Positions 5,455-58,355 of a stretch of 64,000 nt of DNA are shown here, piece by piece (the first letter of the stretch is position 1; each line of letters begins with the position of its first letter). The notes under the pieces are model-generated. The model was given only the letters and a program-made list of their open reading frames with translations. It was not told the DNA's origin and did no database searches. The stretch lies in NCBI GenBank assembly GCA_046705025.1, contig JBJKQU010000030.1, positions 181-64,180 on the forward strand, given 5' to 3'. The DNA comes from Candidatus Kryptoniota bacterium (GTDB lineage: Bacteria > Bacteroidota > Ignavibacteria > Kryptoniales > JAKASW01). A program made the position numbers and the translations under genes.

Positions 5455-5647
5455 CTAAACACCCTTTCAAAATATTATGATCGAGTCGTTCAGGAGGCAG
5501 CGCTGACTCAGGAAAGTATTCCTGCAAGAGGTGCGTGCTGGAAGAGCAACTTGAACGCTGTCAGGGGTTAGGCTCCCGACACAAAAGGCATTGATGTACT
5601 CCTCAAGTGCCTCTCTATGCCTACCGCTTTGCCCCCGGCAAGGGTTG

Positions 5648-6532
5648 TCAGTTCATGTACTTTTCGTAGGTATTTTGGTGTGCCTGATCAACCACCGACA
5701 GCTTTTGTAGAATCGCCTTGGCCCCCGAATAGCCCTGGAGAGACTGAGCGATTTCCATGTACTTCGCATCGAAGAACACCTTGATCAAAGTACTTCTCGT
5801 TCCGGACTGTATTACAAGGTTTGCAATTTGGTCCAACGAACTCGCTATAGTGGCCTGGGCCGTGTCTTTCTCAGTTGAGAGTAAATCCATTCCGTTGTAT
5901 TCGTATTCGTAAAATGCCTTTCTGAAGGGGTCATACTTCCCTGAAAGGATATCGTTCACCAGCGAGTATCTGGAATAGTTCCCCGAACCTCCGGGCTGCC
6001 ATCCCTGTGCAAAATTCCCGTTCTGAGCAAGGGTCACAATGTTCGAGGCGTCCTGGAAATACTTCGTTCCGCCGAGCGGGTCGTAAGAATCATAGTCAAA
6101 GCCGAGGACGATGTACATGTAATAGTCTATGAATCCGGTGAGGGAATTGAAATGATAGTCGTCGTGATACAACGCCTGATCCTTCGTGTAACTAAACTGC
6201 CAGGAGTTGTCAAGAATCCGTACCATCGGCGAGGTGTTGGTGGACTTGTAAATCGGGCGCTGACTGCCGATGAAGGCCTGAGCGTTATATACCCCGCCCG
6301 ATGCCGACAGGAGATAAATGTCCAGAGTAACCTGGATTTTCGGACCCTTGAAGTCGGTCCCCGTCCATCTGTAGCTGTTGACATAGTTCTGAATGGCCGG
6401 CCCGAGGTTCTTCACGTTCTCCCGGTCCGTGCCGTTGAGCTTGTCGTAGTTCAGAGTAACGGTGCAATTGATTTCCTGCGCCATTGCAGAAGAGAATGCG
6501 ACAAACAAGAATACCGATATGAGCCATTTCAT
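5648..6532 (-). CDS. DUF4835-like secreted protein
   Basis: Track ORF is 5648..6580. The ATG at 6532 is preceded by GGAGG and gives the signal peptide MKWLISVFLFVAFSSAMAQ. The mature start EINCTVTLNYDKL.. and overall composition match my recollection of the DUF4835 family of Bacteroidota. Confidence 0.55.
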   Translation of the reverse strand: MKWLISVFLFVAFSSAMAQEINCTVTLNYDKLNGTDRENVKNLGPAIQNYVNSYRWTGTDFKGPKIQVTLDIYLLSASGGVYNAQAFIGSQRPIYKSTNTSPMVRILDNSWQFSYTKDQALYHDDYHFNSLTGFIDYYMYIVLGFDYDSYDPLGGTKYFQDASNIVTLAQNGNFAQGWQPGGSGNYSRYSLVNDILSGKYDPFRKAFYEYEYNGMDLLSTEKDTAQATIASSLDQIANLVIQSGTRSTLIKVFFDAKYMEIAQSLQGYSGAKAILQKLSVVDQAHQNTYEKYMN

Positions 6533-6850
6533 GCTTTTTTCCTCCGGGTCAAATTTAGCTGTCGGTTTAATACAAGGCAACTACTATAAATGACGGTCAC
6601 GCGACGTCGGCAGGGAGGACAGCATGTATCCCGCTTCGGAATCCTGAGCGGCCCGTTAGTTGACGATTCTTGCGATTGATGCCTTAATGAGAGCAAATGC
6701 GTCCACCCAGAAACAGGTTCGGTGTCCGGCAAGAACATGGCACCTCCCGGGCACGGCAGCGAACGAAAAGGTCCCCGAGATCGGCTCCTTGAGGGACCCC
6801 GAGCCGGGGGGCGTATCCGTATGAATTGTCGGACACGCCGCTCTATCGGG

Positions 6851-7618: not shown

Positions 7619-7626
7619 GAGTTCAC

Positions 7627-8910: not shown

Positions 8911-8987
8911 GCCAGTATCTTAACACAAACCTTTTCAATTATCAATCGCAACGTTTTCTGGCAAAGATTCACTAAATTGGACCAGCA

Positions 8988-9638: not shown

Positions 9639-9643
9639 ACAAG

Positions 9644-12182: not shown

Positions 12183-12360
12183 ATATTTCAAAGCTTCTAG
12201 TAATCTTTACACGCTCCATCCCACATCGTCCCCAAGAGTGTTAGCCGGCCATACCCGTAACCGACTTTGTTTCTGATGGTTACCGGCGCGGCATTACCTC
12301 CCCGCGCCATCTCCAATCGTGGCACACTTTTGCTACTCTGAACCTTGAAAGGAACGAAAG

Positions 12361-12726
12361 ATGTCTCTGGTTTGCAAAACCCTCGTATTGTTGGAGAACT
12401 CGGAAATGCGTAAGATTGTCGCAGAAGCTTTTCCGCACCCCAAATATGAGCTGGAATTTGTGGACAACCTTGAAGAGGCTACCGCACGAGCCTTTTCAAA
12501 CCAAACCGATATGTTCATCGTCGACTCGAAATTCTCGAGCGACGAGAAGGTAAACTCCATCAGGCACCATATACCGACGCTGCTGGTCGAGCAGGAATAC
12601 ATTCATGATGGTTCCGAAGAGACCGACGCGTTCAGGGAGGCCGACAGGATGAAGACCGCGGCCGAAAAACTACTTCGCAAGAACTACATCAACTGGATAA
12701 TCGACGCGCTGGAATATTCCAGCTGA
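12361..12726 (+). CDS. receiver-like small protein (atypical REC fold)
   Basis: TLVLLENSEMRKIV..DMFIVDSKF..IPTLLV follows the receiver beta-alpha pattern, but the acidic pocket is non-canonical. It lies directly upstream of a histidine kinase. Confidence 0.4.
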   Translation: MSLVCKTLVLLENSEMRKIVAEAFPHPKYELEFVDNLEEATARAFSNQTDMFIVDSKFSSDEKVNSIRHHIPTLLVEQEYIHDGSEETDAFREADRMKTAAEKLLRKNYINWIIDALEYSS

Positions 12727-12751
12727 TCCGATTACTGAGGAGGCAAGTCTT

Positions 12752-15439
12752 TTGAACGAGGCAATATTGTTTGTCGCAGCACTCTTTTCGCTTCTGCTTA
12801 CCGTTATCTATTGGGCAGCGAGGAAACAGCAGAAGCTGCAAGCGGAGGTGCGGTCAGCACGGCGTGTGGAGTCTTTGGCGGGTTTCCGGATGGCAAAGAC
12901 TTACTCGCTGGAAGAGATCCTGAGAGAGATACTGACAACGTTAATGCGCGTTTACTCGTCGCGGGGCGGAACGCTGGAATTCCACGGAAAGCTTTTCAGC
13001 GACCACTCGATCACCCTCGGAAGCAAGGATTGGAAGCCGTTTCCGTTCCTGAAAAACGAAGAGCAGGACCTGAAAGAATCCGGTCAACAATCAAAAGGTT
13101 TTCAAAGATATCCCGAGACAAAGGAAGGACATATCGCTTTCATCGTCAACGATGAAGACTTTTCCTGCCGTATTGACTTGAACGGAGGAACCGCGCCGAC
13201 TCACAGTGAATACTGGCATATACAGGAGTTGGTGAGAGAGAAAATATCGTGGATTATATATGAAAAGATCAATCGGACCGCAAAGGCAGCACTAGAGGAG
13301 ATCGAGCTCCCCTACGCCGTCCTCGACATCAACGGGAAGCAGCTCCTTAACAACGGGCTGGAAGTAGGGCTGCCCGACGTCGATGAAAGTGAGCTTTCCA
13401 AAGCCATCGGTAGTCTCTGCGCCGTCGGGAGAGAGCAGATTCTTTTTACCGCCGAAAAGAGCAAGCGCAAGGTTTTGGTCAGACGGGTCGACAGGGGGCT
13501 CTTTGCGGCCTTCTTTCCTCACGATCGCTCAGGACAAGAGCGGGGGAGTGTGGGTGCAATGGAATCTCTGCTTTATCAGGCTCTCGATGATTTCAGTATG
13601 GGGATGGTCCTTCTCAACAGGGATGAACGCAGGCAGGACACCCAATACAAAATCACAAAGATAAATACGGCCTTCTACAGAATATTCGGACTGGATGGCT
13701 CCAACTCGCAGTCCGATGAAGTGGAAGAGATTCTTACTTCTGCTATGGGCCCGGACGACATGAAGAAGTTCTCCGTCGGGGGCTCCCATTCAATCACGAA
13801 TTTTTCGTATATGCGCCGCGACGGCTTGAAGGTCAGAGCCCGGCTAACGATAGTCAAAGCTCCCGACGAATCCAGCCTTATAATTTTCGAGCCGGTCGAC
13901 AACACCCATTTTCTGACATCATCCTATCGACATCTCCTCGACGCTGCCCAGCACCTGTACGCCACGGGCGACGTGCGGCAGTACCTTAGAGAGATCAGAG
14001 ACGCGACCGGTTCCGATGGTGTTGCTCTCGCCAGGAGGACACCCGACATGCAGGGGTTCGAGCTTCGCGAAAAGGTTGGATTCATAATCAACGTACCCCA
14101 GCTCCTTCTCGAAGATTTGCCGACGCGAGATTTCATAAATGCCCAGGGTTACCTCGTCATACCTATGAAAGACGGCGATAAGGTAACGGACGCGCTGATA
14201 GCCTTAAAGCCGAGCGAAGAGGCAATCGAGATAGCGTTAGTCGGGGCAAAGATCCTCGAAGCGCATAACCTATTGCAGGGAGAGAATCACGAAGTCCATC
14301 TGCAAAACATGAGATATCTTGCCGAAGCAAAGCGGGCCGACGAGGCGACCAAGCTGAAATCCGAGTTTCTCGCCAGCATGAGTCATGAGATCCGAACCCC
14401 GCTGAATTCAATAATCGGATTTGCAGACATAATTCATACCGAAGTAAAAGACCTCCCCCGGGAGCTGATGAGTGAATTCAGCGGAAATATCGTGGCGGCC
14501 GGAAAGCACCTTTTGAGCCTCATCAACGATATCCTCGACCTGACGAAAGTGGAAACCGGGAAGATGAAACTGGACCTGCAGGAATTTTCTATCAGCGAGG
14601 TCGTCGAAAGTGTTCAAAGAATTCTCAAGCCGCTTCTCGACAAGGGACGGGTCAACCTCGAGACGAAAATCGAGGAAGGACTCGACGTTTTTATTGCGGA
14701 CACAGTGAAATTCAAACAGATTCTGTACAACCTATTGAACAATGCAATCACCTACAGCCCGCAGGGGAGCGCCGTAAGGCTGGAAATAGGGCGTTCCGCA
14801 GACGGAATCGAAATGAAGGTTGTCGACAAAGGTGTGGGGATTAAGAAGGAAGACATAGACAGGCTGTTCAAGCCATTTTCCCAGCTTAACGGAAAGGATG
14901 GCGGAAGCGGGCTTGGCCTGCTGCTGACGAGAAAACTGGCAGAACTCCACGGCGGCGCGATATGGATAGACAGCGAGTATGGAAGCGGAACGACGGTCGT
15001 CGCATATCTGCCGAATTGCCCTGCCGGGGCTGCAGAAAACAAAGTGGAACGGCCCGGAGAGAACGAAAAGGAACGGGTATTCTTCGTGACGGCGGATGGT
15101 CATCTTTTCGACCTGCTCGCCACCGTAGTAGACGGGATGGGGTTCACACTCGAACGAATTGAACCGCAGCTCGTCGGAAAACAAGTGAAAGAGGCGAACG
15201 AGGATACGGTTTGGGTGATCGATGCTTCTCCGGAAAATCTGAACGACGGTATAATCTCGGCGTGCCGGGACGCATCGAAGGTTCTGCTGCTCACCGAGCC
15301 GCAAGACATAAGAGCGGTCTCCGAACTTCTGGCCGCAGGGACACTGGGAAATGATTACGAAGGTAAAGTCAGTTTCATAGATAGAAGGAATTTTACGAAA
15401 AGCGAGCTGCTGGCAGAGTTGAATACGACCGGACATTAG
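12752..15439 (+). CDS. sensor histidine kinase with PAS-like regions and a C-terminal receiver-like extension
   Basis: TTG start 8 nt after GAGGAGG and an N-terminal TM helix. H-box ASMSHEIRTPLNSIIGF and HATPase_c motifs (NLLNNAITYS, DKGVGI, GSGLGLLLTRKLAELHGG). An approximately 140-aa tail (VFFVTADG..VWVIDASPE) is receiver-like. Confidence 0.85.
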   Translation: MNEAILFVAALFSLLLTVIYWAARKQQKLQAEVRSARRVESLAGFRMAKTYSLEEILREILTTLMRVYSSRGGTLEFHGKLFSDHSITLGSKDWKPFPFLKNEEQDLKESGQQSKGFQRYPETKEGHIAFIVNDEDFSCRIDLNGGTAPTHSEYWHIQELVREKISWIIYEKINRTAKAALEEIELPYAVLDINGKQLLNNGLEVGLPDVDESELSKAIGSLCAVGREQILFTAEKSKRKVLVRRVDRGLFAAFFPHDRSGQERGSVGAMESLLYQALDDFSMGMVLLNRDERRQDTQYKITKINTAFYRIFGLDGSNSQSDEVEEILTSAMGPDDMKKFSVGGSHSITNFSYMRRDGLKVRARLTIVKAPDESSLIIFEPVDNTHFLTSSYRHLLDAAQHLYATGDVRQYLREIRDATGSDGVALARRTPDMQGFELREKVGFIINVPQLLLEDLPTRDFINAQGYLVIPMKDGDKVTDALIALKPSEEAIEIALVGAKILEAHNLLQGENHEVHLQNMRYLAEAKRADEATKLKSEFLASMSHEIRTPLNSIIGFADIIHTEVKDLPRELMSEFSGNIVAAGKHLLSLINDILDLTKVETGKMKLDLQEFSISEVVESVQRILKPLLDKGRVNLETKIEEGLDVFIADTVKFKQILYNLLNNAITYSPQGSAVRLEIGRSADGIEMKVVDKGVGIKKEDIDRLFKPFSQLNGKDGGSGLGLLLTRKLAELHGGAIWIDSEYGSGTTVVAYLPNCPAGAAENKVERPGENEKERVFFVTADGHLFDLLATVVDGMGFTLERIEPQLVGKQVKEANEDTVWVIDASPENLNDGIISACRDASKVLLLTEPQDIRAVSELLAAGTLGNDYEGKVSFIDRRNFTKSELLAELNTTGH

Positions 15440-15461
15440 CGCGGTGACTCTATAAACAAGC

Positions 15462-16337
15462 TTATGCCCCCTCGAGCTGGTGCTGCCCGTTTGTGCGCCG
15501 GGTGGTGCCAGCTTTCCTTTTTACCAACTCTTCAACCAACTCCTCCGGACCGAAGCAATGCGCCGTCACCCCTAGCGTCGATGACATTCTTGTGTAGATA
15601 GGATACTTCACTCCGCATCCGGCCATAAATTGCTTCACGTCCCGCCTGTCAAATAATCCGTCCCGGCTGCCGAAGTACCTGATGCCTCCGTGAGAGAGCA
15701 TCAGTAACGTGTCGGCAAACGGAAGAAGAAAATTCAGATCATGCGTCACTATCACTATGGTTTTGCCATGGCTCTTCACCAGAGAAACCAGGTCGCCGAG
15801 GTAGTTTTTCTCGCGCAGGGATAGCCCGGCTGTCGGTTCATCCAGCGCGAGGACAGGTGTGTTCATCGCCGCCGATCCGCCGATTGTCACGAGCCTTCTC
15901 AGCGCGTATGTAAGCGATAGCGGATTGGAATCGAGACAGCCCTCGAGGTGAAGAATCCTTGCGACTTCCCCGACGAGCGAATCGTCTCCGGCTATATTCT
16001 CCACCCCGAACCGGAGTTCTTTCATGACGCTCGAAGCGAAAAGCTGGTCATCCGGATTCTGAAAGCTGAGTGCACAAAGCCCGGCCAGTTCGCTGACCCG
16101 CTTGTCCCCCGTCTTCACATCTCCCAGCCGTACAGCGCCCCGGGTCGGCTTCAATACCCCATTCATCAGTTTCAGGAAGGTACTCTTTCCGGAGCCGTTA
16201 TGCCCTACCACGAGCACGCTGGACCCTGACTCGATCTGGCATGAAACGTCTTTCAAAGCTTGTGTGGAATCATACGAAAATGAGACTTCACGATATTCTA
16301 TCTTCACTTGACACCTCTCAGCGCCTCGATTGCACAC
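15462..16337 (-). CDS. ECF-transporter ATPase (EcfA-type) with degenerate ABC signature
   Basis: Walker A GHNGSGKST and Walker B VLALDEPTAGL. LSLTY occupies the LSGGQ position. It overlaps the preceding ATPase gene by 34 nt. Confidence 0.8.
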   Translation of the reverse strand: MCNRGAERCQVKIEYREVSFSYDSTQALKDVSCQIESGSSVLVVGHNGSGKSTFLKLMNGVLKPTRGAVRLGDVKTGDKRVSELAGLCALSFQNPDDQLFASSVMKELRFGVENIAGDDSLVGEVARILHLEGCLDSNPLSLTYALRRLVTIGGSAAMNTPVLALDEPTAGLSLREKNYLGDLVSLVKSHGKTIVIVTHDLNFLLPFADTLLMLSHGGIRYFGSRDGLFDRRDVKQFMAGCGVKYPIYTRMSSTLGVTAHCFGPEELVEELVKRKAGTTRRTNGQHQLEGA

Positions 16338-17128
16338 TTGTAACTCAGCTCGTACCGGTGCTCCTCGGCAATATCTACGAGATGGCCTTCCCTTATTGCC
16401 TCAGAGACGCTTCTCGTCCATGCCGGTAGCTCGATATGCTCCTCGATTGCCGGATCAAGAATATTCCTGAGCGGACCGTCGGCAATAATTTCTCCACCGG
16501 ATAGAACGACGACCCTGTCTGCTAACTTCAGTGTCAGATACGGATCGTTCTCGGCGACAAGAACGGTCATTCCCGCCTTCAACTCGGCAAGTACATCCAC
16601 CAGACAGGAAGCGCTCTCAGGGTCTAGCTGGCTGAGGGGTTCATCCAGAATCAGCAAGCGAGGCTTCACAGCCAGGGCAGTCGCCAGCACCACTTTCTGC
16701 TTCTCACCGCCCGATAGCTCAAGAGGATTGCGAAAAGCCAGCTGTTCTATCCTGATTTTCTTCAGTACCTCTTCAACCCTGTGTCCGATCTCCTCCCGCG
16801 GCAGACCGAGGTTCTCACATGGAAAGGCAACCTCCTCAAAGACGGTTGACCGCAGATAAGTTATCTGAGCATAAAAGTTCTGCATGACGATTGCGATTCC
16901 GCCGGCCGCACCCGAGGTTTCCTTCCTGAAGATTTCTCCGCTCGTAACAGCGGCCGGGTACGACCTCAGGAAATCGGCAGCGGCGAAACACAGAGACGAT
17001 TTCCCTGCACCGCTCATTCCGCTTACGACGATACATTCCCTTTCGCTTATGTCCAGGTTGATGTGCTTCAAGGCAGGTGGAGCACCCTGGGCGTAGGCCA
17101 GCGTGAAATCCTTGAACGAAATAAGCAT
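16304..17128 (-). CDS. ECF-transporter ATPase (EcfA-type), canonical
   Basis: Walker A GMSGAGKSS, signature LSGGEKQKV, Walker B LLILDEPLSQLD. Confidence 0.85.
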   Translation of the reverse strand: MLISFKDFTLAYAQGAPPALKHINLDISERECIVVSGMSGAGKSSLCFAAADFLRSYPAAVTSGEIFRKETSGAAGGIAIVMQNFYAQITYLRSTVFEEVAFPCENLGLPREEIGHRVEEVLKKIRIEQLAFRNPLELSGGEKQKVVLATALAVKPRLLILDEPLSQLDPESASCLVDVLAELKAGMTVLVAENDPYLTLKLADRVVVLSGGEIIADGPLRNILDPAIEEHIELPAWTRSVSEAIREGHLVDIAEEHRYELSYKCAIEALRGVK

Positions 17129-17883
17129 CAGGCGATAAGCCTCCAGAATGAAATGGCGGCCGTCACAAGAAGGACGCCTCTGCCGAGTATCAAGCCTCCT
17201 CTGTTTACTTCAATTTCCAGGAGCGGGGTCACTTTTCTTTCCCGGATCGACCTGCTGCCCGAGAAATTCGCGGCCTGAAGCGCGATTCCGCGATCAAGGC
17301 TCTCCGCAATGTACGAATACGACAGCGGGACAAGGAGCGGCAACAGATATCGCGCGCGGGCAATGAAGTTCTTGTTAGTGTCGAGCCCGCGGGCAGACTG
17401 TGCAACATAAATTTTCTCCAGCTTGTCATGCATCAGGTGAACCATCGCGACTGAAAGTAGATATACATAAACGAATCGCCTGTCGGCACCTCTTGCCGCG
17501 AGGTACTCAGAAATCGTTTCGGTTTTTACCTTTGAAAAATAGTACCCAATAGAAATAACGATCAGTATCAAACGAACCGCCACCCGCGACGCGAACAGTA
17601 GACCTTCGTCTTTGAACTTCAAGGGTCCCAGTGAGAAGACCACGTTGCCCGTGAAGAAGATGCCGTTTATGAAGAACCCGATCAGGATCAACGGAAGAAC
17701 GAACTTCAAAAATCCGCGGTAAATTTTTCTTCTGTCCGGAGAAACAAGCGTTGCTGCTACCAGCAGAATCAAAACGGGAAGCTGCCATTCCAGTCTGAAC
17801 GCAAAGGCTGCGAGTACGATGCTCAGTGTGAGATAGTGATTCAGCGGATTGTACTCTCTCTTAAACGACTCAGGTGTTTGCAT
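17128..17883 (-). CDS. ECF-transporter transmembrane T component (EcfT/CbiQ family)
   Basis: Multi-TM protein with the two Ala-Arg-Gly-type coupling motifs (VAQSARGLD and ESLDRGIAL). Confidence 0.8.
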   Translation of the reverse strand: MQTPESFKREYNPLNHYLTLSIVLAAFAFRLEWQLPVLILLVAATLVSPDRRKIYRGFLKFVLPLILIGFFINGIFFTGNVVFSLGPLKFKDEGLLFASRVAVRLILIVISIGYYFSKVKTETISEYLAARGADRRFVYVYLLSVAMVHLMHDKLEKIYVAQSARGLDTNKNFIARARYLLPLLVPLSYSYIAESLDRGIALQAANFSGSRSIRERKVTPLLEIEVNRGGLILGRGVLLVTAAISFWRLIA

Positions 17884-18484
17884 ATCCCGGCAGGCGGAGG
17901 CGTATCGAGCGTGGAATTCTTGTCAATAAGAAATATACTATCAAGTAGCTTACGGCTTTGTCTACCGGATCGGCGGCCATGCCCTGAAGGAAGGCACTCT
18001 GTATAATCGATTTGCCTATCGCACGGAAGTACAGCACAAGGAAATCCGTCCCTCCCATGGTCACTCCGCCGAACATGAACGCGGCAATAGGCGCCGACGC
18101 GACAGCGCTGAGCACTCCCTGTACTAAACCCGCCGGCAGTGCCAGGTACCACCGCTTGAAAACGCCGAGACGCGCCACGAAACCGCTGAAGGCACCTATA
18201 ACAAGCGTCACGGGTACGAAGAAGATAAAGGCGTAATTGAAGAAGAAACCGAGAGTCAGGTTGGCGAACGCGCCGGTCAGCATGCCCGCGAGCGGGCCCA
18301 CGACACAAGCGATTAATATCGTCCCGATCGAATCGAGATACAGCGGAAGTTTGATCAGTTGGACTGCCTGCCCGACGACGATGTTGAGAGCGATTCCGAA
18401 GGCTATGAGGGGAATAGTCGTCGCATTGACTTCCCGCTCAAGCGCAGAGACCTTTTCAGCCATACATTTCCCGCATGGCGGCAC
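17870..18484 (-). CDS. ECF-transporter substrate-capture (S) component, substrate unknown
   Basis: About 200 aa with six predicted TM helices and Gly/Ala-rich packing. It sits directly upstream of the T and A components. Confidence 0.65.
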   Translation of the reverse strand: MPPCGKCMAEKVSALEREVNATTIPLIAFGIALNIVVGQAVQLIKLPLYLDSIGTILIACVVGPLAGMLTGAFANLTLGFFFNYAFIFFVPVTLVIGAFSGFVARLGVFKRWYLALPAGLVQGVLSAVASAPIAAFMFGGVTMGGTDFLVLYFRAIGKSIIQSAFLQGMAADPVDKAVSYLIVYFLLTRIPRSIRLRLPGYANT

Positions 18485-19382
18485 TTAATTTCTCGATCTC
18501 GGTATCAGGCGAAAGGCTTCCGATCTCGGTCATTAAGGCCGTGACCAACCCGGGGCGGATCTTGTCGAAATATAGATTTCTTACCTCAAATTCCGGATTG
18601 GCAAAAATCTCGTGTGCACCCTCCTCTTTGTTGACAAAAGTCTCCGCACTCTTTTCCGAGTCGTATTTCAGCACGCTCGTGATCGCATAAAACTTCTTCC
18701 CGGATGTCGCACAAGCGGCCGCAAGCGCAAATGAACCTATCTTGTTTATGAGAGTTCCGTCCGATAGGACGGCATCAGCGCCGACGAGCGCCGCGTCGAT
18801 CTGAGTTATGAATGTTCCTATGGAAGCATCGGAGACGAGGATCGGCCTGTGCCCCATCTTCTTCAGTGCACGCGCCGTTTGCCTCCCTTCAAAGAGCGGG
18901 CGCGACTCCATCACGAAGACTGTGGTGAACTTATTCTGAGCGGCTGCACGCTCAAAGGACCGCAAAACAAACTCGCTTTGACTCAACGTAGCGTACTGCC
19001 CCTCATCGGCAATGAGTCTCGATGCTTGCTCAGCCGCTTTCGGAGCGGCTTCTCCCACCTTTCGGAGCAGGACATCCAGATAGGAACACATCTCCTCGGG
19101 CTTCATTTTGTCCGATGCCGAAATCACGAGTCTGCAAATGTTCGACAAGGCGGACATTTGAGATTGCGCATTTGAAAGGGTTGTAGAAAGCGACTTCAAC
19201 TCTCTGATGAACGCCTCCGCCTTGCAATTCTCTACGCTGAAATCGTACAGCAGATCGAGAGTGTCTTTCAACACTTGCTGCGCACTCGAGATATTGTCGG
19301 TGGCAATGCGATTTGCGCGTTCGAGATATTCCGTTTTCATGGGACTGCGAAGTAGTTTAAAGTCTTCACGGTAAAATTGCAA
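18456..19382 (-). CDS. eIF-2B alpha/beta/delta-family sugar-phosphate isomerase-like protein (MtnA / ribose-1,5-bisphosphate isomerase relatives)
   Basis: VFVMESRPLFEGRQTARALKKMGHRPILVSDASIGTFI..ALVGADAVLSDGTLINKIGSFALAAAC..KKFYAITSVLKYD is the IF-2B family core. The track start is TTG at 19382; the first ATG is at 19340. Confidence 0.75.
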   Translation of the reverse strand: MQFYREDFKLLRSPMKTEYLERANRIATDNISSAQQVLKDTLDLLYDFSVENCKAEAFIRELKSLSTTLSNAQSQMSALSNICRLVISASDKMKPEEMCSYLDVLLRKVGEAAPKAAEQASRLIADEGQYATLSQSEFVLRSFERAAAQNKFTTVFVMESRPLFEGRQTARALKKMGHRPILVSDASIGTFITQIDAALVGADAVLSDGTLINKIGSFALAAACATSGKKFYAITSVLKYDSEKSAETFVNKEEGAHEIFANPEFEVRNLYFDKIRPGLVTALMTEIGSLSPDTEIEKLSAAMREMYG

Positions 19383-19528
19383 TCAACGCAGAAGGAACCA
19401 ACGCTTGTTCACCCCCGCACTCGGTCAATTCGTCCATAAAGGAGCTTCCCCGCACGGAACTTATCCGCTTGCTTTCGGTTTAGGTCTAATGACTCATCGC
19501 ACCATATTATCAACTCGGAGGAATAGAA

Positions 19529-20707
19529 ATGAGCAATTACAAATATGTAATCGCGGGCGGTGGCTTGGCCGCAGATTCTGCAGTCCAGGGAATCAGAGAA
19601 GTAGACGACTCCGGCTCCATCGCGGTTTTCAGCGAAGAGAAGGACCGGCCCTACAACCGGCCGCCGCTCTCAAAAGGACTGTGGAAAGGTGACCCCATCG
19701 AATCCGTGTGGAGGAAAGGCGAATACAGGAACACCGAGATCTTCACTTCGACGCGAATCACAGCCATCGACACTTCCGAGAAAATAGTGAGAACTCGAGA
19801 CGGGGCGACCCACCACTACGAGAAGCTCCTCCTTGCAACCGGTGGAAGGCCCAAGACTTTCCCCTTCGGCGGCGACGAAGTCATTTATTTCAGAACCCTC
19901 GAGGATTACAGAAGGCTTCGCTCGCTGACCGAGCGCGGCTCCGACTTCGTGGTCATCGGTGCAGGGTTCATAGGCTCCGAGGTGGCGGCTGCTCTCACCA
20001 TGAACGGTAAACGGGTAACCATGATATTCCCGGAGGACAAAATCGGTGCCCGCGTGTACCCGAAAGGCCTCGCGTCCTTCCTTGTCTCTTACTACATGGA
20101 AAAGGGTGTGAATATCCTTAGCGGCGAATCGGTGAAGGGAATCGAAAAGAAAGACGGGAAGATGCACGTGAAGATATCGGGAGACGAAGAGGTCCTAGCG
20201 GATGCAATCGTGGCAGGTCTCGGTATCACTCCCAATGACGCGATCGCCAGAGTAGCCGGCCTCTTAACCGAGGACGGGATTCTTGTGGACGAAATGTTGA
20301 GGACAGCTAACCAAGACATCTACGCGGCCGGTGACGCAGCAAACTTTCCTAATTATCTACTCGGCAGGCGAACTCGGGTGGAACACGAGGATAATGCAAA
20401 CATGATGGGACTGACAGCTGGTCACAATATGGCAGGCCGGTCGGAACCGTATCACCACCTTCCATTCTTCTATTCCGACCTCTTCGACCTGGGCTATGAA
20501 GCAGCCGGAGACCTCGATTCGCGGCTGGATACAATCGAAGACTGGGAAGAGGAATTCCGCAAAGGCGTAATCTACTATCTGCGGGACGGACTCGTAAGAG
20601 GGGTACTTCTCTGGAACACATGGGGAAAAGTTGATGCGGCACGGGAACTTATAGGTTCCGGAAAGAAGCATTCCAGGGAATCGCTGAAATCATTGATACG
20701 CGAGTGA
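19529..20707 (+). CDS. FAD-dependent pyridine nucleotide-disulfide oxidoreductase (ferredoxin-reductase/AIF-like)
   Basis: VIAGGGLAADSA (FAD GxGxxA), LLLATGGRP, VVIGAGFIGSEVAAAL (NAD fold), AAGDAANF. Confidence 0.8.
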   Translation: MSNYKYVIAGGGLAADSAVQGIREVDDSGSIAVFSEEKDRPYNRPPLSKGLWKGDPIESVWRKGEYRNTEIFTSTRITAIDTSEKIVRTRDGATHHYEKLLLATGGRPKTFPFGGDEVIYFRTLEDYRRLRSLTERGSDFVVIGAGFIGSEVAAALTMNGKRVTMIFPEDKIGARVYPKGLASFLVSYYMEKGVNILSGESVKGIEKKDGKMHVKISGDEEVLADAIVAGLGITPNDAIARVAGLLTEDGILVDEMLRTANQDIYAAGDAANFPNYLLGRRTRVEHEDNANMMGLTAGHNMAGRSEPYHHLPFFYSDLFDLGYEAAGDLDSRLDTIEDWEEEFRKGVIYYLRDGLVRGVLLWNTWGKVDAARELIGSGKKHSRESLKSLIRE

Positions 20708-20715: not shown

Positions 20716-20744
20716 AAAGAAACCCCGCCGAAGCGGGGTTTCGA
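20716..20744. terminator. bidirectional rho-independent terminator
   Basis: aaaaag-aaccccgc-cgaa-gcggggtt-tcgat lies between convergent genes. The stem is 20721-20728 / 20733-20740, and A/T tracts flank both sides. Confidence 0.75.
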
Positions 20745-20763: not shown

Positions 20764-22872
20764 TTACTTCAACAATACCATCTTCATCGTCTTATCGAAG
20801 TTCTTCGCGGATACTCTGTAGAAGTAGACTCCGCTGGCGACTTCTTCGCCTGCGTTGTTTCTCGCGTTCCACGTAAGCTGGTAAGTGCCCGGTACATAAT
20901 TAGAGTTTGTCAGCACTTTCACGAGTTCTCCGATCGAATTATAGACCGACACATTCACGATTCCCGTCTTCGGAACCGAGAAGTTGATAGTCGTTGTCGG
21001 GTTGAACGGATTCGGATAGTTCTGGTCTAGCGCGTAAGACGTAGGAACCTTGTTGCTGACTACCTTGACTCCGGTAACGATACCGAGAGCTCTCTGCAGC
21101 AGCGCAAAGGTATACTTAGCGTTATGAACACCGTAGCTGCCGTCTTTCGACACCAGTAGATAATCCCAGTAAGCACCGAGCTGATTCTGCGTCAGCTTCG
21201 CGGCTCCGCTTGCGCTGATATTGCCGTTGACCAGAGAATCCGGAAGCGAGGCGGCTAGCTTCGCAAGAAGTGCCTTCACTTCAGTCTGGACACCCGGTAT
21301 CGGGCCGCCGTTGGCGATGCCGGCATAATCATATGGTGCCGGGATCTGATCGAAGCTGGTGATCGGTCCGTGGCAGGATTGGCAGGCAGTGGTGTTGTCC
21401 ACCGTGTCTCCCAGCGCATCCGGTCCTCTCATTGCCCAGGTATGACCGCCGAGAGTCATTGCAGCATTCGCATCGAGCGTATCGGAAGCCATATGACATG
21501 TCACGCAAGCATCGGTGAGCTGAGTATGCGTGGCTAAACCGGTAATGGAGCTGTCTCCGAAATCGTAACCGTTCTGGCCCCAGAACATATCGGTCTGCGG
21601 CCCTTCATGAGGTCCAAAGTACGACTTATAACCCGCCGCAACAGCACCATTGACTGCAGAACGAGCGCGGTGGCAATTCATGCAGAGCTGACCGGCTCCG
21701 CCGCCCGGGATCTGGAATCCGTTGGTCAATGCAGGAGCAGAATATTTCCTCAACTGATATGGATTTGTTGCGTCGTGCGGATTGTGACATCCGGCGCAAG
21801 TCAGCGGCATCGCATCGTACTTTGATTGACTCAGTTGCCCGTTAATTGCATAATCGGCAAAGCCGCTGCCGGTGTGGCACTGTGCACACGGGGCGCTCAG
21901 CACGTGACCACCCTCCATACCCTGGATCGCGATCATCCCACTGTCGTGCGGGCTGCTGGTCCATTCTCTACCGATTGCATGATGAGGCGGCTCGTCATGG
22001 CACTGCATACAGACCGAAGCGCTCAGTGAAACCGAGATCTTGGAAGGATCTCCCCAGTGCTCGCTTCCCGGACCGTGGCAGCTTTCACATCCGATAGCCG
22101 CCAGCTGTGCAAGCTGGGCGGAAGTATGATACAGGTGAGCGAAGTTGGTGTCGGCAAGTGTCGATGGAAATGTCCAGCCGACTTTGTTTGCGACGGCAGC
22201 GAAATTGCCGTTGGCAGCTCCCGGATTGTAGCCCGTAGTGTGGCACTGGATACAATGAGCGCTGTATCCACTTCCAGCTGGGCCGACGCCGTTGATGTTC
22301 TCTTTGAAGAACCACGAATGTGCTGTGCCCATCCAATGAGAGTAGTCTGCCGTCGGATCGAGACCTAATCCGGTCAGGGATCCCTGGTGACAGACTCCGC
22401 ACTGCGGGACTTTAGCCGTTGCGCTGTCCAGCGTCGCGATGCCCATAGAACCGACGCCGACATAATCTGCCGAGGTGATCACGGTAGACGCCTGTGAGGC
22501 CCCTCCGGCGGTGCTAATTTGAAGATTGATTGTATATTCGCCCGTTGTGTCAACTGTGATCGTTGTGAATGGAGCAGATGCACTGTCAATCTTTGCATGT
22601 CCACCAACAGGATCAACAACCGACCAAGTTACTGACTGAATTGGACCTCCCGTAGAATCGATCGCTTGAAGATAAACTATCGTTTTCTCGCCAACGGTGT
22701 TCAAACCCGTCGTCGGGTACATCGCACTCCCGGCAGAACCGTAATGCTGATCCAAAGTGTAGGGGGTCATCCCAACTACCTGAATGCCAGCCTTCGGTGC
22801 TGCTGTTTGTGAGAAAGCCAATCCAGCTGCGAGGAATACAACCACTAAACTGGTAAGAATTTGTTTCCTCAT
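20764..22872 (-). CDS. nonaheme c-type cytochrome with T9SS C-terminal sorting domain
   Basis: The start ATG at 22872 is preceded by AAAGGAG (the track ORF extends to 22959). Signal peptide MRKQILTSLVVVFLAAGLAFSQ. Nine CXXCH motifs: CGVCH, CIQCH, CESCH, CMQCH, CAQCH, CAGCH, CMNCH, CVTCH, CQSCH. C-terminus ALDQNYPNPFNPTTTINFSVP...KMVLLK. Confidence 0.85.
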   Translation of the reverse strand: MRKQILTSLVVVFLAAGLAFSQTAAPKAGIQVVGMTPYTLDQHYGSAGSAMYPTTGLNTVGEKTIVYLQAIDSTGGPIQSVTWSVVDPVGGHAKIDSASAPFTTITVDTTGEYTINLQISTAGGASQASTVITSADYVGVGSMGIATLDSATAKVPQCGVCHQGSLTGLGLDPTADYSHWMGTAHSWFFKENINGVGPAGSGYSAHCIQCHTTGYNPGAANGNFAAVANKVGWTFPSTLADTNFAHLYHTSAQLAQLAAIGCESCHGPGSEHWGDPSKISVSLSASVCMQCHDEPPHHAIGREWTSSPHDSGMIAIQGMEGGHVLSAPCAQCHTGSGFADYAINGQLSQSKYDAMPLTCAGCHNPHDATNPYQLRKYSAPALTNGFQIPGGGAGQLCMNCHRARSAVNGAVAAGYKSYFGPHEGPQTDMFWGQNGYDFGDSSITGLATHTQLTDACVTCHMASDTLDANAAMTLGGHTWAMRGPDALGDTVDNTTACQSCHGPITSFDQIPAPYDYAGIANGGPIPGVQTEVKALLAKLAASLPDSLVNGNISASGAAKLTQNQLGAYWDYLLVSKDGSYGVHNAKYTFALLQRALGIVTGVKVVSNKVPTSYALDQNYPNPFNPTTTINFSVPKTGIVNVSVYNSIGELVKVLTNSNYVPGTYQLTWNARNNAGEEVASGVYFYRVSAKNFDKTMKMVLLK

Positions 22873-22940
22873 AGCTATTTCTCCTTTTCTAGTGCTTTTG
22901 GCATGAAACAGGAAACTCAAAGTTAAATTTCCAGACAGTA

Positions 22941-22959
22941 TGTGCAACTCGAATGCCAA
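22941..22959 (-). promoter_or_regulatory. sigma-54-type -24/-12 promoter element upstream of cytochrome 1
   Basis: The minus strand reads TTGGCATtcgagTTGCAca. GG-N10-GC spacing is exact, and the -12 GC lies about 72 nt upstream of ATG 22872. Confidence 0.45.
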
Positions 22960-23206
22960 TCGAAGAGTCTTTAACCCCTCAAGATTCGAAGAAAAACGCC
23001 ATTAAGTGCCTCTCGAAAATCTACACCCGCAGATGAAGGCAATCTTCGGCTCATCATTGCGGGCATTTTGGGACAGTTTTGTGTTCAACTCTTTCATCTA
23101 ATCCTTTCCCGGTATTCATATGAAAGTACCCGAGATCACAACTTTGCTGCGGGGGCGTGCCATGAAGAGAAGAATTCTCAACCCCTTTTCTGAAGGCCGT
23201 TGCAGG

Positions 23207-23240
23207 CAACGCAGGGCTGCGCCGCCTGCAACACCAAATG
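23207..23240 (-). terminator. long imperfect hairpin just downstream of the cytochrome 2 stop
   Basis: gttgcaggc (23207-23215) / gcctgcaac (23232-23240), with an inner cgcag/ctgcg pairing. It starts 4 nt after the stop and has no clear U-tract. Confidence 0.4.
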
Positions 23241-23243
23241 TCG

Positions 23244-25280
23244 TCATTTCATCAGCATCATCTTGCGCACCCACGCAAAGTCCCTCGACGTCATCTTGCA
23301 GAAATAAGCACCGCTGGAAACCATTAACCCTGAGGAGTTCCTTCCGTCCCAGCGCACTTTATAAGTCCCGGGAGTGAAGTAGTTGTTCACCAGCGTGTTG
23401 ACGACCTGTCCGACGGAGTTGTATATGACAACCTTGACATTTCCCGATTTCGGTACGGAGAAATTTATCATAGTCGTCGGATTGAACGGGTTCGGATAGT
23501 TCTGGTCCAGGGCGTATGACTGAGGTACCTTGTTTGTCACCATTTCAACTCCGGTAAGCGTGCCAAGTGCACGGGTCAGGATGGCAAAGGTGTACTTGGC
23601 ATTGTGCACACCGTAGCTTCCGTCGTTCACGACGAAATAATAATCATATACGGCCCCCAGATAGTTCGGATTGCCGGCGATCGATGTGGAATCCGTAGCA
23701 ACCGCCCCTGTAGCGTCTTTCGGCAATACAGCGGCGAGCTTTGCCAGCAGCCCTTTGACTTCGGTCTGCACGCCCTCAGTCTTCCCATTGCCGTCATAAT
23801 CATCAGCCGCTTGAATGTCGTCAAAGCTCGCTATCGGCCCGTGGCAACCCTGGCACACTTCGGCGTTCTCGACAATCTTCGTCCCAGAACTGTCCGGACT
23901 GCTCATATTCCATGTGTGGCCGCCGAGTAGATTAGCCATGCTTCCGGTTGCAGTCGACATGTGGCAGGTAACGCAAGCGTCTTGCAGCTGCGTATGCGTG
24001 GTATTACCCGTAATCGACTTGTCGCCGAATTGAACAGCGTTTTGCCCGAAGAACATGTCGGTCTGAGTGCCGTAGTGCGGGCTGTAATGGCTTGCCCACT
24101 TAGTCGTGTAAGTGGCTGCGTTCCTTCTTGACATGTGGCAATTCATGCAAAGCTGTCCGACCCCGCCGCTGGTTATTTTGTAGCCGTTCATCAGACTGCC
24201 TGCAGTGACCGTTCTCAATTGATGAGGATTCTGATCAGAATGGGGATCATGACATGATGCACAGCCTATCGGCATCGTTGCTTGAGTGCCCGATATCGTC
24301 TGTGATGTGGCGGAGAGATAGAAGCCCGTACCGTTATGGCACTTTGCACAAGAGGCGGCGTTTACTCCCGCATCTTCCTCCTGTACCATATTTTTTCCGT
24401 GACTGCTCGTCTCATACTGCCTGACGACCATATGATGTGTCGGAGTGTCGTGGCATTGGGCACAGACCTTCACATCGAGAGATATGCTTATCCTGTTGCT
24501 ACCCAGTTGACCGTTGTGTTCGCTTCCTGGCCCGTGACAGCTCTCGCACCCGATCGTCGCAAGCTGTGCAAGCTGGTGGGATACATTGTTCAAGTGAGTG
24601 AAATTCGTGTCGACATATGCAGAAGGAAAGGTCCATCCCGACTGAGCCTGGAGGTCATCGAATCCGCCGTTGCTAGCATTAAGATCGTATCCCGTAGTAT
24701 GGCAGGTAATACAACTAGAGCCGTAGTGTGTCTGCCTTGGATCCGTACCATTAATTGCGTTCTCGAACAATACTGCGTGAGGAGTTTGCATCCACTCCTG
24801 TACCATCGGCAGGTGGCAGAGCCCGCATTTCGGATCCTGGATTGAGGCGCCGCCTCCGCCCATGAAACCTACTCCCTGGTAGTAGGCAGAAGTAATTGTG
24901 TCTGAAGTAGTAGCAGTTCCCCCAGATGTGGTCACACTCAGTCGCACAACGTATTGCCCATTGGTGTCTACTTTCATAGTGGTGAATGCAGCGCTAACGC
25001 TATCGATGACCGTTTTCGACCCGGTCGGCTTGCTTGATAACGACCATGTGACAGCAGTGATTTGACCCCCGCCCAAATCGACCGCTGACAGATAAACGAT
25101 AGAGCCTTTACCGACTGTCGGCAACCCGGATGTAGTCGTCCTTGTCCCCTGTGATCCGTAGATCTTGGAGAATTGGTAACCAGACATCCCGACCACTTCG
25201 ATTTTCGGAGTCGGAGTCTGTGACAACGCGATGCCAGCCGTCAATAAGGCCATGGTGAAGGAGGTAAACAACTTACCCAT
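23244..25280 (-). CDS. nonaheme c-type cytochrome with T9SS C-terminal sorting domain (paralogue)
   Basis: ATG 25280 is preceded by AAGGAG. Signal peptide MGKLFTSFTMALLTAGIALSQ. Nine CXXCH motifs: CGLCH, CITCH, CESCH, CAQCH, CAKCH, CASCH, CMNCH, CVTCH, CQGCH. C-terminus ALDQNYPNPFNPTTMINFSVP...KMMLMK. Confidence 0.85.
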   Translation of the reverse strand: MGKLFTSFTMALLTAGIALSQTPTPKIEVVGMSGYQFSKIYGSQGTRTTTSGLPTVGKGSIVYLSAVDLGGGQITAVTWSLSSKPTGSKTVIDSVSAAFTTMKVDTNGQYVVRLSVTTSGGTATTSDTITSAYYQGVGFMGGGGASIQDPKCGLCHLPMVQEWMQTPHAVLFENAINGTDPRQTHYGSSCITCHTTGYDLNASNGGFDDLQAQSGWTFPSAYVDTNFTHLNNVSHQLAQLATIGCESCHGPGSEHNGQLGSNRISISLDVKVCAQCHDTPTHHMVVRQYETSSHGKNMVQEEDAGVNAASCAKCHNGTGFYLSATSQTISGTQATMPIGCASCHDPHSDQNPHQLRTVTAGSLMNGYKITSGGVGQLCMNCHMSRRNAATYTTKWASHYSPHYGTQTDMFFGQNAVQFGDKSITGNTTHTQLQDACVTCHMSTATGSMANLLGGHTWNMSSPDSSGTKIVENAEVCQGCHGPIASFDDIQAADDYDGNGKTEGVQTEVKGLLAKLAAVLPKDATGAVATDSTSIAGNPNYLGAVYDYYFVVNDGSYGVHNAKYTFAILTRALGTLTGVEMVTNKVPQSYALDQNYPNPFNPTTMINFSVPKSGNVKVVIYNSVGQVVNTLVNNYFTPGTYKVRWDGRNSSGLMVSSGAYFCKMTSRDFAWVRKMMLMK

Positions 25281-29739: not shown

Positions 29740-29929
29740 ATCCAGGCTGCTCCTCCGAACGGCAGAAATAAGGCTGTGAAAAAGATGAGGCCAAGCTTAC
29801 TGTGTCACACGGTCAGTACGCTTGCCGTTGCTTCCTTCCGGACCTGGCGGGGTTCGGCAACTTTCCGTTGCACAGGACTTGACCTCAAAAATCTATTCCT
29901 TAGCCCTCAACGATTTAAAAACTCTAACG

Positions 29930-30003
29930 TGGAGCAGAGGGGGATCGAACCCCCGACCTCCAGAGTGCGATTCTGGCGCTCTCCCAAACTGAGCTACTGC
30001 CCC
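29930..30003 (-). tRNA. tRNA-Ala (anticodon CGC)
   Basis: I folded the cloverleaf by hand. Acceptor GGGGCAG/CTGCTCC with the G3:U70 alanine identity pair. D arm GCTC-AGTTTGGGA-GAGC. Anticodon arm CCAGA-ATCGCAC-TCTGG (CGC). T arm GGGGG-TTCGATC-CCCCT. Discriminator A; CCA is not encoded. Confidence 0.9.
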
Positions 30004-57374: not shown

Positions 57375-58355
57375 TCAGAAACTCAACTCCACTGAAAACC
57401 TGTGAACATCGCCCAGTCGCTGATAAGGGGTAAAAGCATAGTCAAACGCAATTATCGCGAACTTCGTATTTGCCCTGACGCCGGCGCCGAGCGAATAACT
57501 CTGCTCCACCACGTTGACCTTGTAGCCGCCTCTCAGGAAGAACACGGAGGCGTAAGAATATTCGGCCCCCAGCGCCACATTCTCGGAATTATCGGCGGGG
57601 TGGTTAAGCTGCACGGATGTCGTCACCCTGTTCTGCTTGTCCTGATAGGGCTCGAACGCAAAGCCGATCCGGAAGATTGTGGGAGGAGAGAACCCCTGGA
57701 AGCTGGAGACGGTGGTACCGTCCACCAGCTGCACGGATCCTGACGGTGCCATCTGTCCGCCAAAATTGCTGACGGAAACCGCAAATCTCGTCGATCCGAT
57801 TCCGGTCCAGTAGTATGTTCCCAAATCCACAAGCACGCCCCGCATAGAGAGAGCGGCAAGCGTTTCGTCGACATACTTTACGCTGACGCCGAAGCTGAAT
57901 CTGTCGGTCATCTTCCGGGCGTAGGTGGCGGCCACGGCAAGATCGCCGTATTTGAAATATTCACCCGTGCCGTACGGCTGGAGCTCGGTGGTGACCGGCA
58001 TGTCCTCGGAACGGAGAGAGATTACAGAAATGCCGACGCTGTTCTGCTCGTCGAGATGGTAGACGCCGCCGATGAAGTCATGCTGAAGCCCGACAAACCA
58101 GGTCGAATGAGAGAAGGCGATATCATTCTTGTCGAACTCTGAAATTCCCGCCGGGTTGTAAAACAGCGCATAGGCATCGTTTGCCACTGCGGCGAAGCTT
58201 TCCGCCATAGCGTTTGCCCTGGCCCCCACACCGATCTTCAGAAACTCCGCAGTCGTTATCCCGACCCGCTGGGAGCCGAGCACGGGAAAGAGCTGTGCCT
58301 GTGAAGCGGAAGCAATCCCAAGAACGAGGAGCGCTGAAAGAATGTACTTATTCAT
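57375..58355 (-). CDS. PorV/PorQ-family outer-membrane beta-barrel
   Basis: Signal peptide ..ASASQAQ. GARANAMAESFAAVANDAYALFYNPAGI motif, a beta-strand pattern, and a terminal ..FSVELSF. Confidence 0.6.
   Translation of the reverse strand: MNKYILSALLVLGIASASQAQLFPVLGSQRVGITTAEFLKIGVGARANAMAESFAAVANDAYALFYNPAGISEFDKNDIAFSHSTWFVGLQHDFIGGVYHLDEQNSVGISVISLRSEDMPVTTELQPYGTGEYFKYGDLAVAATYARKMTDRFSFGVSVKYVDETLAALSMRGVLVDLGTYYWTGIGSTRFAVSVSNFGGQMAPSGSVQLVDGTTVSSFQGFSPPTIFRIGFAFEPYQDKQNRVTTSVQLNHPADNSENVALGAEYSYASVFFLRGGYKVNVVEQSYSLGAGVRANTKFAIIAFDYAFTPYQRLGDVHRFSVELSF

Follow-up and report, generated by a model that had tools for sequence, protein, structure and literature searches.

Tandem OcwA-type nonahaem cytochromes with type IX secretion tails: candidate surface electron-transfer proteins of a Kryptoniota bacterium

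Results

Two paralogous nonahaem cytochrome genes lie in tandem

We analysed a 64-kb stretch of DNA from a Candidatus Kryptoniota bacterium (hereafter the window), which carries two adjacent minus-strand genes for nonahaem c-type cytochromes, each ending in a predicted type IX secretion system (T9SS) sorting tail. Gene B (23244..25280) encodes 678 amino acids (aa) and was recognised from its open reading frame (ORF), nine CXXCH motifs and Pfam and NCBIfam matches; its product is identical to database protein P0001. Gene A (20764..22872) encodes a 702-aa paralogue, supported by its ORF, nine CXXCH motifs and BLASTP, and identical to P0034. A preliminary description, made from the sequence by eye, had called these genes collinear paralogues with about half of their residues identical, and BLASTP agrees: the two head-to-tail ORFs share 50% protein identity over their full length (E = 0). 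The reading frame of A can be opened from a TTG at 22959, and the start is likely to be the ATG at 22872, giving 702 aa, because AAAGGAG lies ahead of it, homologues begin with MRKQ and the protein then matches P0034.

The genes themselves are only 56% identical at the nucleotide level, which points to an old rather than a recent duplication. The same description had reported near-identical DNA blocks within the pair; the best-matching blocks (21004-21138 and 23484-23618) reach only 70-75% identity. Recent duplication or gene conversion was thus rejected, given 56% identity overall and 75% at best, and given that separate orthologues of both paralogue types occur in other assemblies. There, B-type (69-85% identity) and A-type orthologues form the same tandem pair, and some relatives carry one A-type copy only, at the same locus.

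The 371-nt spacer between the genes (22873..23243, minus strand) carries the AAAGGAG ahead of the A start and, directly 3' of the B stop codon, a GC-rich hairpin without a T run (23199..23232, minus strand), both read from the sequence. A terminator scan placed an intrinsic terminator 3' of A (20719..20742, minus strand), with a GC-rich stem of 10 bp and then a run of T. Apart from this strong terminator, promoter and terminator scans gave background-level signals. An Rfam search over the window returned the signal recognition particle (SRP) RNA and tRNA only, with no match in the spacer.

Haem motifs, signal peptides and N-terminal domain

The CXXCH motifs number exactly nine in each protein and follow one common order, and their spellings are those that had been read from the sequence: CGVCH/CGLCH, CIQCH/CITCH, CESCH/CESCH, CMQCH/CAQCH, CAQCH/CAKCH, CAGCH/CASCH, CMNCH/CMNCH, CVTCH/CVTCH and CQSCH/CQGCH for the successive pairs of the paralogues. 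Outside these motifs A has no cysteine and B has one, in its tail. No other ORF of at least 80 aa in the 64 kb carries a CXXCH motif, and a PNPF tail within a gene is likewise confined to A and B.

Both N-termini show a short basic start, a hydrophobic stretch and an A-x-S/Q junction that is kept across homologues, as read from the sequence, and both proteins are accordingly predicted to carry an N-terminal Sec signal peptide. In B this covers about aa 1-20 (...GIALS/QT; 25221..25280, minus strand) and forms a helix at residues 2-19 in the model; in A it covers about aa 1-21 (...GLAFS/QT; 22810..22872, minus strand). The domain that follows had been described as a roughly 130-aa beta-sandwich, possibly PKD- or immunoglobulin (Ig)-like, and structure prediction bears this out. 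The AlphaFold2 (AF2) model of the B domain (about aa 22-135; 24876..25217, minus strand) is an all-beta sandwich with a predicted local distance difference test score (pLDDT) of about 90, with PKD matches in Foldseek and weak Pfam PKD matches. The A domain (about aa 24-140; 22453..22803, minus strand) aligns with it and has a weak Pfam PKD match of its own.

The haem core is most similar to OcwA

The nonahaem core spans about aa 147-580 in B (23541..24842, minus strand), where it was delimited by profile comparison with the PDB and by Foldseek, and about aa 153-604 in A (21061..22416, minus strand), from Pfam, a PDB search, the family alignment and the motif count. A single-sequence search of the PDB gave OcwA (6I5B) as the best match for B (E 1.9e-8) and 6QVM as the best match for A. 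The latter entry, 'multiheme cytochrome cf', we take to be OmhA of Carboxydothermus ferrireducens. We then ran a profile built from 28 family members against the PDB. This matched OcwA with E 4e-26 over positions 278-582 plus N-terminal segments, and 6QVM with E 5e-19 over positions 220-584. Weaker matches were to octahaem nitrite reductases (2.5e-8), c554 (5e-8), NrfA (1.4e-7 for 8bcx, to 1e-6) and MccA (3e-5). OcwA is a cell-surface nonahaem cytochrome of the Gram-positive Thermincola potens, built as a fusion of a c554-like tetrahaem with an NrfA-like pentahaem (Costa et al. 2019, PMC6703420). The B core appears to follow the same plan, a c554-like tetrahaem, an NrfA-like pentahaem and C-terminal helices.

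The structural comparison gave the same ranking. The AF2 model of B has a mean pLDDT of 78.8 and, when searched against the PDB with Foldseek, retrieved OcwA first, with E 4e-7, a template modelling (TM) score normalised to the target of 0.52 and 567 aligned columns, a moderate fit. Beyond the CXXCH motifs, eight positions are invariant or nearly so in the family (B numbering: H168, H255, H294, H347, H402, H455, H559 and M441), and in the family alignment each matches an identical residue in OcwA. These residues are therefore predicted to be distal haem ligands shared with OcwA. In OcwA, His-His pockets lie over the five-coordinate haems 2 and 5 (PMC6703420). The haem-2 pair aligns with H282/H283 of B and with an HH of A and is replaced in several family members, and the haem-5 pair aligns with Y399/S400 of B and is not conserved.

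Two Pfam matches suggest other affiliations. The NrfA model PF02335 scores above its cutoff in B, covering profile positions 237-394 of 438, which correspond to the C-terminal part and exclude the catalytic haem; it does not match A. The catalytic CXXCK motif is absent from A and B and occurs once among 120 listed homologues. NrfA membership, as implied by PF02335 in B and by some automatic annotations, was thus ruled out by motif and coverage. PF22113 scores above cutoff over about 100 residues of A and suggested an MtrC-like protein, which we likewise rejected on the fold, the haem number and the lack of a lipobox; no MtrC-family structure is among the top 50 Foldseek matches of the B model. 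Since OcwA is the best match in both profile and fold, the His/Met positions are conserved, CXXCK is absent and PF02335 is only partially covered, we file A and B as OcwA-type nonahaem cytochromes within the NrfA/c554/MccA superfamily, a placement drawn from sequence profiles and the model. The preliminary description had named a periplasmic enzyme family as the alternative home for such proteins. The core does lie in a superfamily of that kind, yet it has no CXXCK, and OcwA, the characterised protein closest to it, is exposed at the surface; the placement thus neither refutes surface exposure nor fully clears the proposal of this objection.

The C-terminal tail behaves as a modular T9SS sorting domain

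The tail of about 85 aa that had been read as a T9SS sorting signal was recovered by hidden Markov model searches in both proteins. TIGR04183 matches the last 80-85 or so residues of A with 34.1 bits and of B with 30.9 bits (cutoff 23), defining type A C-terminal sorting domains (CTDs) at about aa 619-702 in A (20767..21018, minus strand) and aa 595-678 in B (23247..23498, minus strand). PF18962 (Por_Secre_tail) also matches A, with 29.3 bits against a gathering score of 27. Both tails finish in a conserved K-M-x-L-[LM]-K at the extreme C-terminus. Foldseek matches of the B tail include FlgD, the PorU and PorZ CTDs, and one chain from 8GL8, a T9SS translocon complex.

The modularity of the tail was surveyed with a family-alignment scan of 185,579 species genomes, which gave 592 confirmed stretches; 80 loci from the FCB superphylum (Fibrobacterota-Chlorobiota-Bacteroidota and allies) were kept. 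Nearly all of the stretches align just to residues ~585-678 (B numbering), the pattern QNYPNPFN is dominant, and the hits are mostly unrelated T9SS cargo with about five true cytochrome loci. They come from Ignavibacteria, Calditrichia, Zixibacteria, Gemmatimonadota, Cytophagia, Chitinophagaceae, Cloacimonadota and Marinimicrobia. Within the 80 kept loci, 100 of the 106 complete tail-bearing ORFs, ranging from 142 to 2522 aa, have no haem motif. Because the same tail sits on so many unrelated haem-free proteins, it appears to be a modular tag that behaves as a sorting domain.

Two T9SS-related genes were found in the window. PorD (DUF4835), a T9SS component, is encoded at 5648..6580 on the minus strand (NF052317 equivalog, 235.3 bits against a cutoff of 170; PF16119). 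A PorV/PorQ-family outer-membrane protein, of the T9SS shuttle family, is encoded at 57375..58355, also on the minus strand (NF033709, 212.3 bits against 90; PF19572, 43.2 against 27), and falls under both the PorV and the PorQ equivalog cutoffs. This gene adjoins one for a CarboxypepD_reg-type TonB-dependent receptor (58411-61374).

A large family with the tail in most close homologues

A word-indexed search returned 657 homologues, whose names, where given, include Kryptoniota/Kryptonia, Ignavibacteria, Bacteroidota, KSB1, Latescibacterota and 'T9SS type A sorting domain-containing protein'. Among the best 120 of these, 94 have nine CXXCH motifs, 23 have eight (several of them with a CX3-4CH variant) and two have eighteen; the T9SS tail is kept in 118. 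An exhaustive HMMER search with the core alone (B residues 140-590) covered 1.84 billion sequences, each representing one 50%-identity cluster. It gave 2179 matches at E<=1e-3, of which 1196 reached <=1e-10 and 377 reached <=1e-30. A PNPF tail is present in 74 of the 146 new representatives from this search, and the rest carry other recurrent C-terminal sequences or membrane anchors. Given these differing endings, one redox core seems to have been combined with lineage-specific C-terminal modules.

Core homologues that lack the tail (P0122-P0261) end in recurrent sequences, for example ...F[FY]RV[IL]..P and ...DYP..LRGPV...W.[LM]Y, or else have a hydrophobic segment with basic residues after it, and these endings may be other sorting or anchoring signals. 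Outside the FCB lineages the core carries other C-terminal tails, including membrane anchors, and so would fit an extracytoplasmic, surface-directed protein. Fused double or triple nonahaem modules with 15-24 CXXCH motifs and up to 1946 aa were seen in P0051, P0092 and P0121-P0126.

Porin-cytochrome-like genes accompany family members in other lineages

The preliminary description had noted that no porin-cytochrome genes adjoin the pair, and this extends to the whole window, where no porin-cytochrome module (a barrel with periplasmic and lipoprotein multihaem cytochromes) was found. It had gone on to propose a system built without an Mtr/Pcc-style porin-cytochrome complex. This was the weakest part of that interpretation: a protein outside the outer membrane cannot span it, so a separate trans-outer-membrane conduit is needed, and relatives of A and B do have candidate conduit genes alongside.

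Two independent assemblies, KSB1-like by the names of their homologues, share the same cluster (L086, 6827-17267; L089, 10001-16619). In order, it encodes a T9SS-tagged nonahaem cytochrome (922 and 931 aa, respectively), a Cys-free protein (421 and 430 aa), a predicted periplasmic cytochrome that has 14 haems and a signal peptide, and a cytochrome of 6-8 haems that bears a lipoprotein signal. The model of one homologue of the Cys-free protein is a barrel of about 24 strands (pLDDT 84) that matches usher and porin barrels. Its family has 71 homologues, all named 'hypothetical', and no Pfam or NCBIfam family. As judged from sequence and model, the layout is that of a porin-cytochrome complex, and the barrel looks like an undescribed porin of such a complex. 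Homologues of the L086 barrel were sought in Kryptonia-like genomes, and only KSB1 and Calditrichaeota relatives were found. L086 also encodes a second T9SS-tagged cytochrome; a T9SS-tagged cytochrome of this locus carries an EB_dh (haem-b-binding) domain.

In a further locus, L084, a family member and another T9SS-tagged cytochrome, with six haems, lie next to a gene cluster (1-9751) that holds a sigma-54 activator and three cytochrome b (Ni_hydr_CYTB) genes. Interleaved with the latter are cytochromes of 9 and 18 haems that end in hydrophobic helices, and the cluster is a candidate inner-membrane quinol-oxidising module. The remaining family loci examined have no respiratory neighbours. Since relatives' members sit beside a porin-cytochrome-like trio (L086, L089) or beside cytochrome b and multihaem genes (L084), the partners of A and B are most likely encoded elsewhere in the genome. 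In two Bacteroidota-labelled loci (L083, 8086-9543; L088, 8157-9614), a 485-aa FadL/Toluene_X-family barrel is encoded directly upstream of the family member, with two small putative lipoprotein genes ahead of it.

Genomic surroundings

In the window, genes for phosphofructokinase, methylglyoxal synthase and RNase G lie upstream of the cytochrome pair, and those for an AIF-like flavoprotein, an IF-2B-family protein, an ECF transporter and a histidine kinase lie downstream. The upstream synteny is shared with the closest relatives (L001 and L082), where only about 6 kb separates PorD from the cytochromes, in the order cytochrome, UPF0102, RNase HII, NfeD, Band7, PorD. Compared with these two loci, the window has about 10 kb extra (about 10557-20707) between A and RNase HII, encoding an NFACT protein, an 895-aa histidine kinase, the ECF transporter, the IF-2B-family protein and the AIF-like FAD oxidoreductase. 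A 1665-aa hybrid sensor kinase that has multiple PAS and GAF domains and two receivers (33585-38582, minus strand), followed by a receiver-kinase gene (32485-33609), makes up a sensor-kinase pair (32485-38582) that is syntenic with the cytochrome locus in relatives.

Other features of the window include adjacent genes for SRP RNA and tRNA-Ala(CGC) (29786-30003, minus strand), a GWxTD-domain protein that adjoins a Sel1-repeat protein (46324-47652, plus strand; TIGR04514, 103.8 bits against a cutoff of 28) and, at the window end, a weak IS200-like Y1 transposase match (63170-63709, minus strand).

Discussion

A model for T9SS display of nonahaem cytochromes

The domain architecture, the OcwA homology, the tail, the T9SS genes of the window and the gene neighbourhoods of relatives are matters of observation, and they allow us to put forward a reading of the pair. 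On balance we favour A and B as cell-surface or released terminal electron-transfer proteins of an FCB bacterium, displayed by the T9SS and fed by a conduit encoded elsewhere. The proposal of surface cytochromes exported by the T9SS, made in the preliminary description, is supported by the multihaem content, the type A CTD, its behaviour as a modular tag, the PorD and PorV/PorQ-family genes and the OcwA relationship, and the porin-free conduit attached to it is not supported.

The attachment of c-type haem is periplasmic. The T9SS exports folded, CTD-bearing proteins; in the species studied, PorU cleaves the tail and the cargo is attached to anionic lipopolysaccharide or released. A and B would thus be exported by the Sec pathway through their signal peptides, and both the covalent attachment of nine haems and folding would take place in the periplasm. 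The T9SS would then recognise the type A CTD and move the folded protein across the outer membrane, where, by analogy with studied cargo, the tail would be removed and the protein anchored at the surface or released. There the OcwA-type nine-haem chain could pass respiratory electrons to extracellular acceptors such as Fe(III)/Mn(IV) minerals, humics or flavins, and reduction of small oxyanions might also occur where a haem has a coordination site open. The electrons would beforehand have crossed the outer membrane by a separate conduit, of the kind that appears to be encoded beside family members in other lineages. The two paralogues may serve different acceptors, work at different potentials or, as OcwA is a dimer, form a heterodimer.

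Several observations weigh against this reading. PF18962 gives 25.3 bits for B, 1.7 short of its gathering score of 27, and the tails of both proteins also match FlgD_ig (PF13860) above cutoff. Housekeeping genes (phosphofructokinase, methylglyoxal synthase and RNase G) flank the cytochromes in the window and in the two closest relatives, with no respiratory partner nearby, and sprA, porKLMN, porU, ccm genes and a conduit were not seen within the 64 kb. The AF2 model of B is haem-free and of moderate confidence in the core (pLDDT 63-90), so that the continuity of the haem chain is drawn from homology. OcwA also reduces nitrite and hydroxylamine, and a soluble substrate is therefore possible for A and B. 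What goes beyond the architecture and homology of a T9SS-tagged family, namely secretion, surface anchoring, haem coordination, substrate and the direction of electron flow, is prediction.

Alternative readings

The OcwA activity on nitrite and hydroxylamine, with HH pockets over open haems, leads to a different view of A and B, as enzymes that act, at the surface or after secretion, on soluble compounds of nitrogen or sulfur (nitrite, hydroxylamine, NO, tetrathionate or sulfite) and not on minerals, with catalysis at one or two five-coordinate haems, in detoxification or respiration. The membership of the core in the NrfA/c554/octahaem nitrite reductase/MccA superfamily, the PF02335 match in B, the nitrite reductase names given automatically to some homologues and the haem-2 HH pair kept in both proteins fit such a role. 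We nonetheless regard it as unlikely: CXXCK is absent from A, B and 119 of the 120 listed homologues, the PF02335 match leaves out the catalytic haem, the haem-5 pocket is not conserved and the haem-2 pair is replaced in several family members. Nitrite turnover by OcwA is moreover very slow, at about one per minute (PMC6703420), there is no obvious gain from exporting an enzyme for freely diffusing anions past the outer membrane, and the neighbourhoods of relatives are porin-cytochrome-like rather than nrfH/nrfBCD-like. Electrons might instead flow inward through proteins of the same architecture and location, with Fe(II), reduced minerals, humics or partner cells as the donors. Multihaem chains are reversible, the sequence does not settle which way the electrons run, and the Kryptonia paper speaks of 'redox transformation of iron' and likens the pathway both to the oxidising Mto/Pio systems and to the reducing Mtr system (PMC4737851). 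Both characterised relatives, OcwA and OmhA, are however linked to Fe(III) and electrode reduction, the L084 locus pairs a family member with cytochrome b and multihaem modules that are usually read as quinol oxidation, and the window holds no Cyc2-like or carbon-fixation gene, so that inward flow seems quite doubtful.

The FlgD_ig matches, FlgD among the Foldseek matches of the tail and the sub-cutoff PF18962 score of B are what would be expected if the tail were a FlgD/Ig-like structural or adhesion domain and the cytochromes were periplasmic carriers or stores. Only two T9SS-related genes were seen in the window, and to our knowledge T9SS function has had no experimental demonstration outside Bacteroidota, which also counts in favour of a periplasmic location. 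Against this, TIGR04183 is above cutoff in both proteins, the domain lies at the extreme C-terminus with its conserved final motif, and the same tail occurs on about 100 unrelated haem-free proteins in many FCB genomes. The window encodes a PorD equivalog and a PorV/PorQ-family protein, homologues from outside the FCB lineages have other terminal anchors in place of the tail, and OcwA, the closest characterised relative, is surface-located. We consider a periplasmic role improbable, and retain T9SS-displayed terminal electron transfer as the preferred reading.

Implications

Extracellular electron transfer is mechanistically understood in a few Proteobacteria and a few Gram-positive bacteria, and the outermost proteins of FCB bacteria are uncharacterised. 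A and B raise a wider idea, which we hold tentatively, at close to but short of even chances: that the T9SS is a general route in FCB bacteria (Kryptoniota, Ignavibacteriota, KSB1, Calditrichota and some Bacteroidota) for placing haem-loaded multihaem cytochromes on or beyond the cell surface, with T9SS-displayed OcwA-type nonahaems, including fused 18- and 24-haem forms, accepting electrons from separate porin-cytochrome conduits. If so, this would be a third solution to display, beside type II secretion, by which Proteobacteria display lipoprotein decahaems, and the anchoring to the wall seen in Gram-positive bacteria. If A and B are indeed T9SS cargo, the system would move a cofactor-loaded respiratory protein, widening its known cargo range, and, across a large and mostly uncultured portion of the bacterial tree, the proteins for the outer step in the respiration of metals or electrodes would have been identified. 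The OcwA-type core joined to a TIGR04183 tail would then also serve as a simple marker for surface cytochromes in genomic surveys, and would represent one redox core reused with lineage-specific sorting tags.

Comparison with known systems

Enrichment on anodes and under iron-reducing conditions is regularly seen for FCB bacteria, namely Ignavibacteria and their relatives (PMC7399161, PMC11495043). For 'Ca. Kryptonia', an iron-respiration pathway with extracellular CXXCH cytochromes (pfam09698, pfam14522) has been proposed (Eloe-Fadrosh et al. 2016, PMC4737851, Supplementary Fig. 8), and 811 TIGR04183 proteins were counted in its genomes; in the passages of that paper that we consulted the cytochromes are not tied to a T9SS tail or to OcwA. 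Sorting domains are not mentioned for the cytochromes in the Melioribacter multi-omics paper. Our literature search, which left most subscription journals outside its reach, found no link of the T9SS with multihaem cytochromes or extracellular electron transfer, the T9SS and extracellular electron transfer being named together only in an unrelated review.

Shewanella MtrC, OmcA and UndA are outer-surface decahaem lipoproteins that leave the cell through type II secretion and receive their electrons from the MtrAB porin-cytochrome complex. In the proposed role A and B would resemble them, as folded haem proteins that are exported, displayed at the surface and fed by a conduit, and A has the local PF22113 match; they differ in belonging to the OcwA fold family, in having nine rather than ten haems and no lipobox cysteine, and in carrying a T9SS rather than a type II secretion tag. 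The periplasmic NrfA, octahaem nitrite reductases, MccA and c554 share the superfamily of the A/B core, whereas A and B lack CXXCK, cover the NrfA model only in part and have an additional N-domain and secretion tail. Classical T9SS cargo includes gingipains, ChiA, SprB and many glycoside hydrolases, and PKD/Ig-like domains are common in it. A and B have the same signal peptide, passenger domains and TIGR04183 type A CTD, with the difference that their passenger is a cofactor-loaded respiratory cytochrome.

The closest parallels are found in Gram-positive bacteria. OmhA of C. ferrireducens is a secreted 11-haem cytochrome that is upregulated during ferrihydrite respiration and belongs to a clade different from the OcwA type, and OcwA itself groups with nonahaems of Gram-negative bacteria (Gavrilov et al. 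2021, PMC7829351). The OmhA core is homologous to that of A and B, as the profile match to 6QVM indicates, and the protein differs in its eleven haems, its Gram-positive host and the lack of a T9SS tail. OcwA exchanges electrons with electrodes, iron and flavins, and reduces nitrite and hydroxylamine slowly (PMC6703420). It has in common with A and B the nine CXXCH motifs, the fusion of tetrahaem and pentahaem, the C-terminal helices, the distal His/Met positions, the haem-2 HH pair and, as proposed here, the role of a surface terminal reductase, and it is the best profile and structural match of the family. The differences are its monoderm host, the absence of a T9SS tail and a PKD-like N-domain, an identity to B of only about 17-19% in the structural alignment and a haem-5 HH pocket that B has not kept. 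The automated T9SS-sorting labels on homologues, the OcwA structure and the proposal of extracellular cytochromes in Kryptonia were already known. The union of an OcwA-type, rather than MtrC-like, core with a T9SS tag is new here, and suggests an OcwA-type reductase adapted to diderm FCB bacteria.

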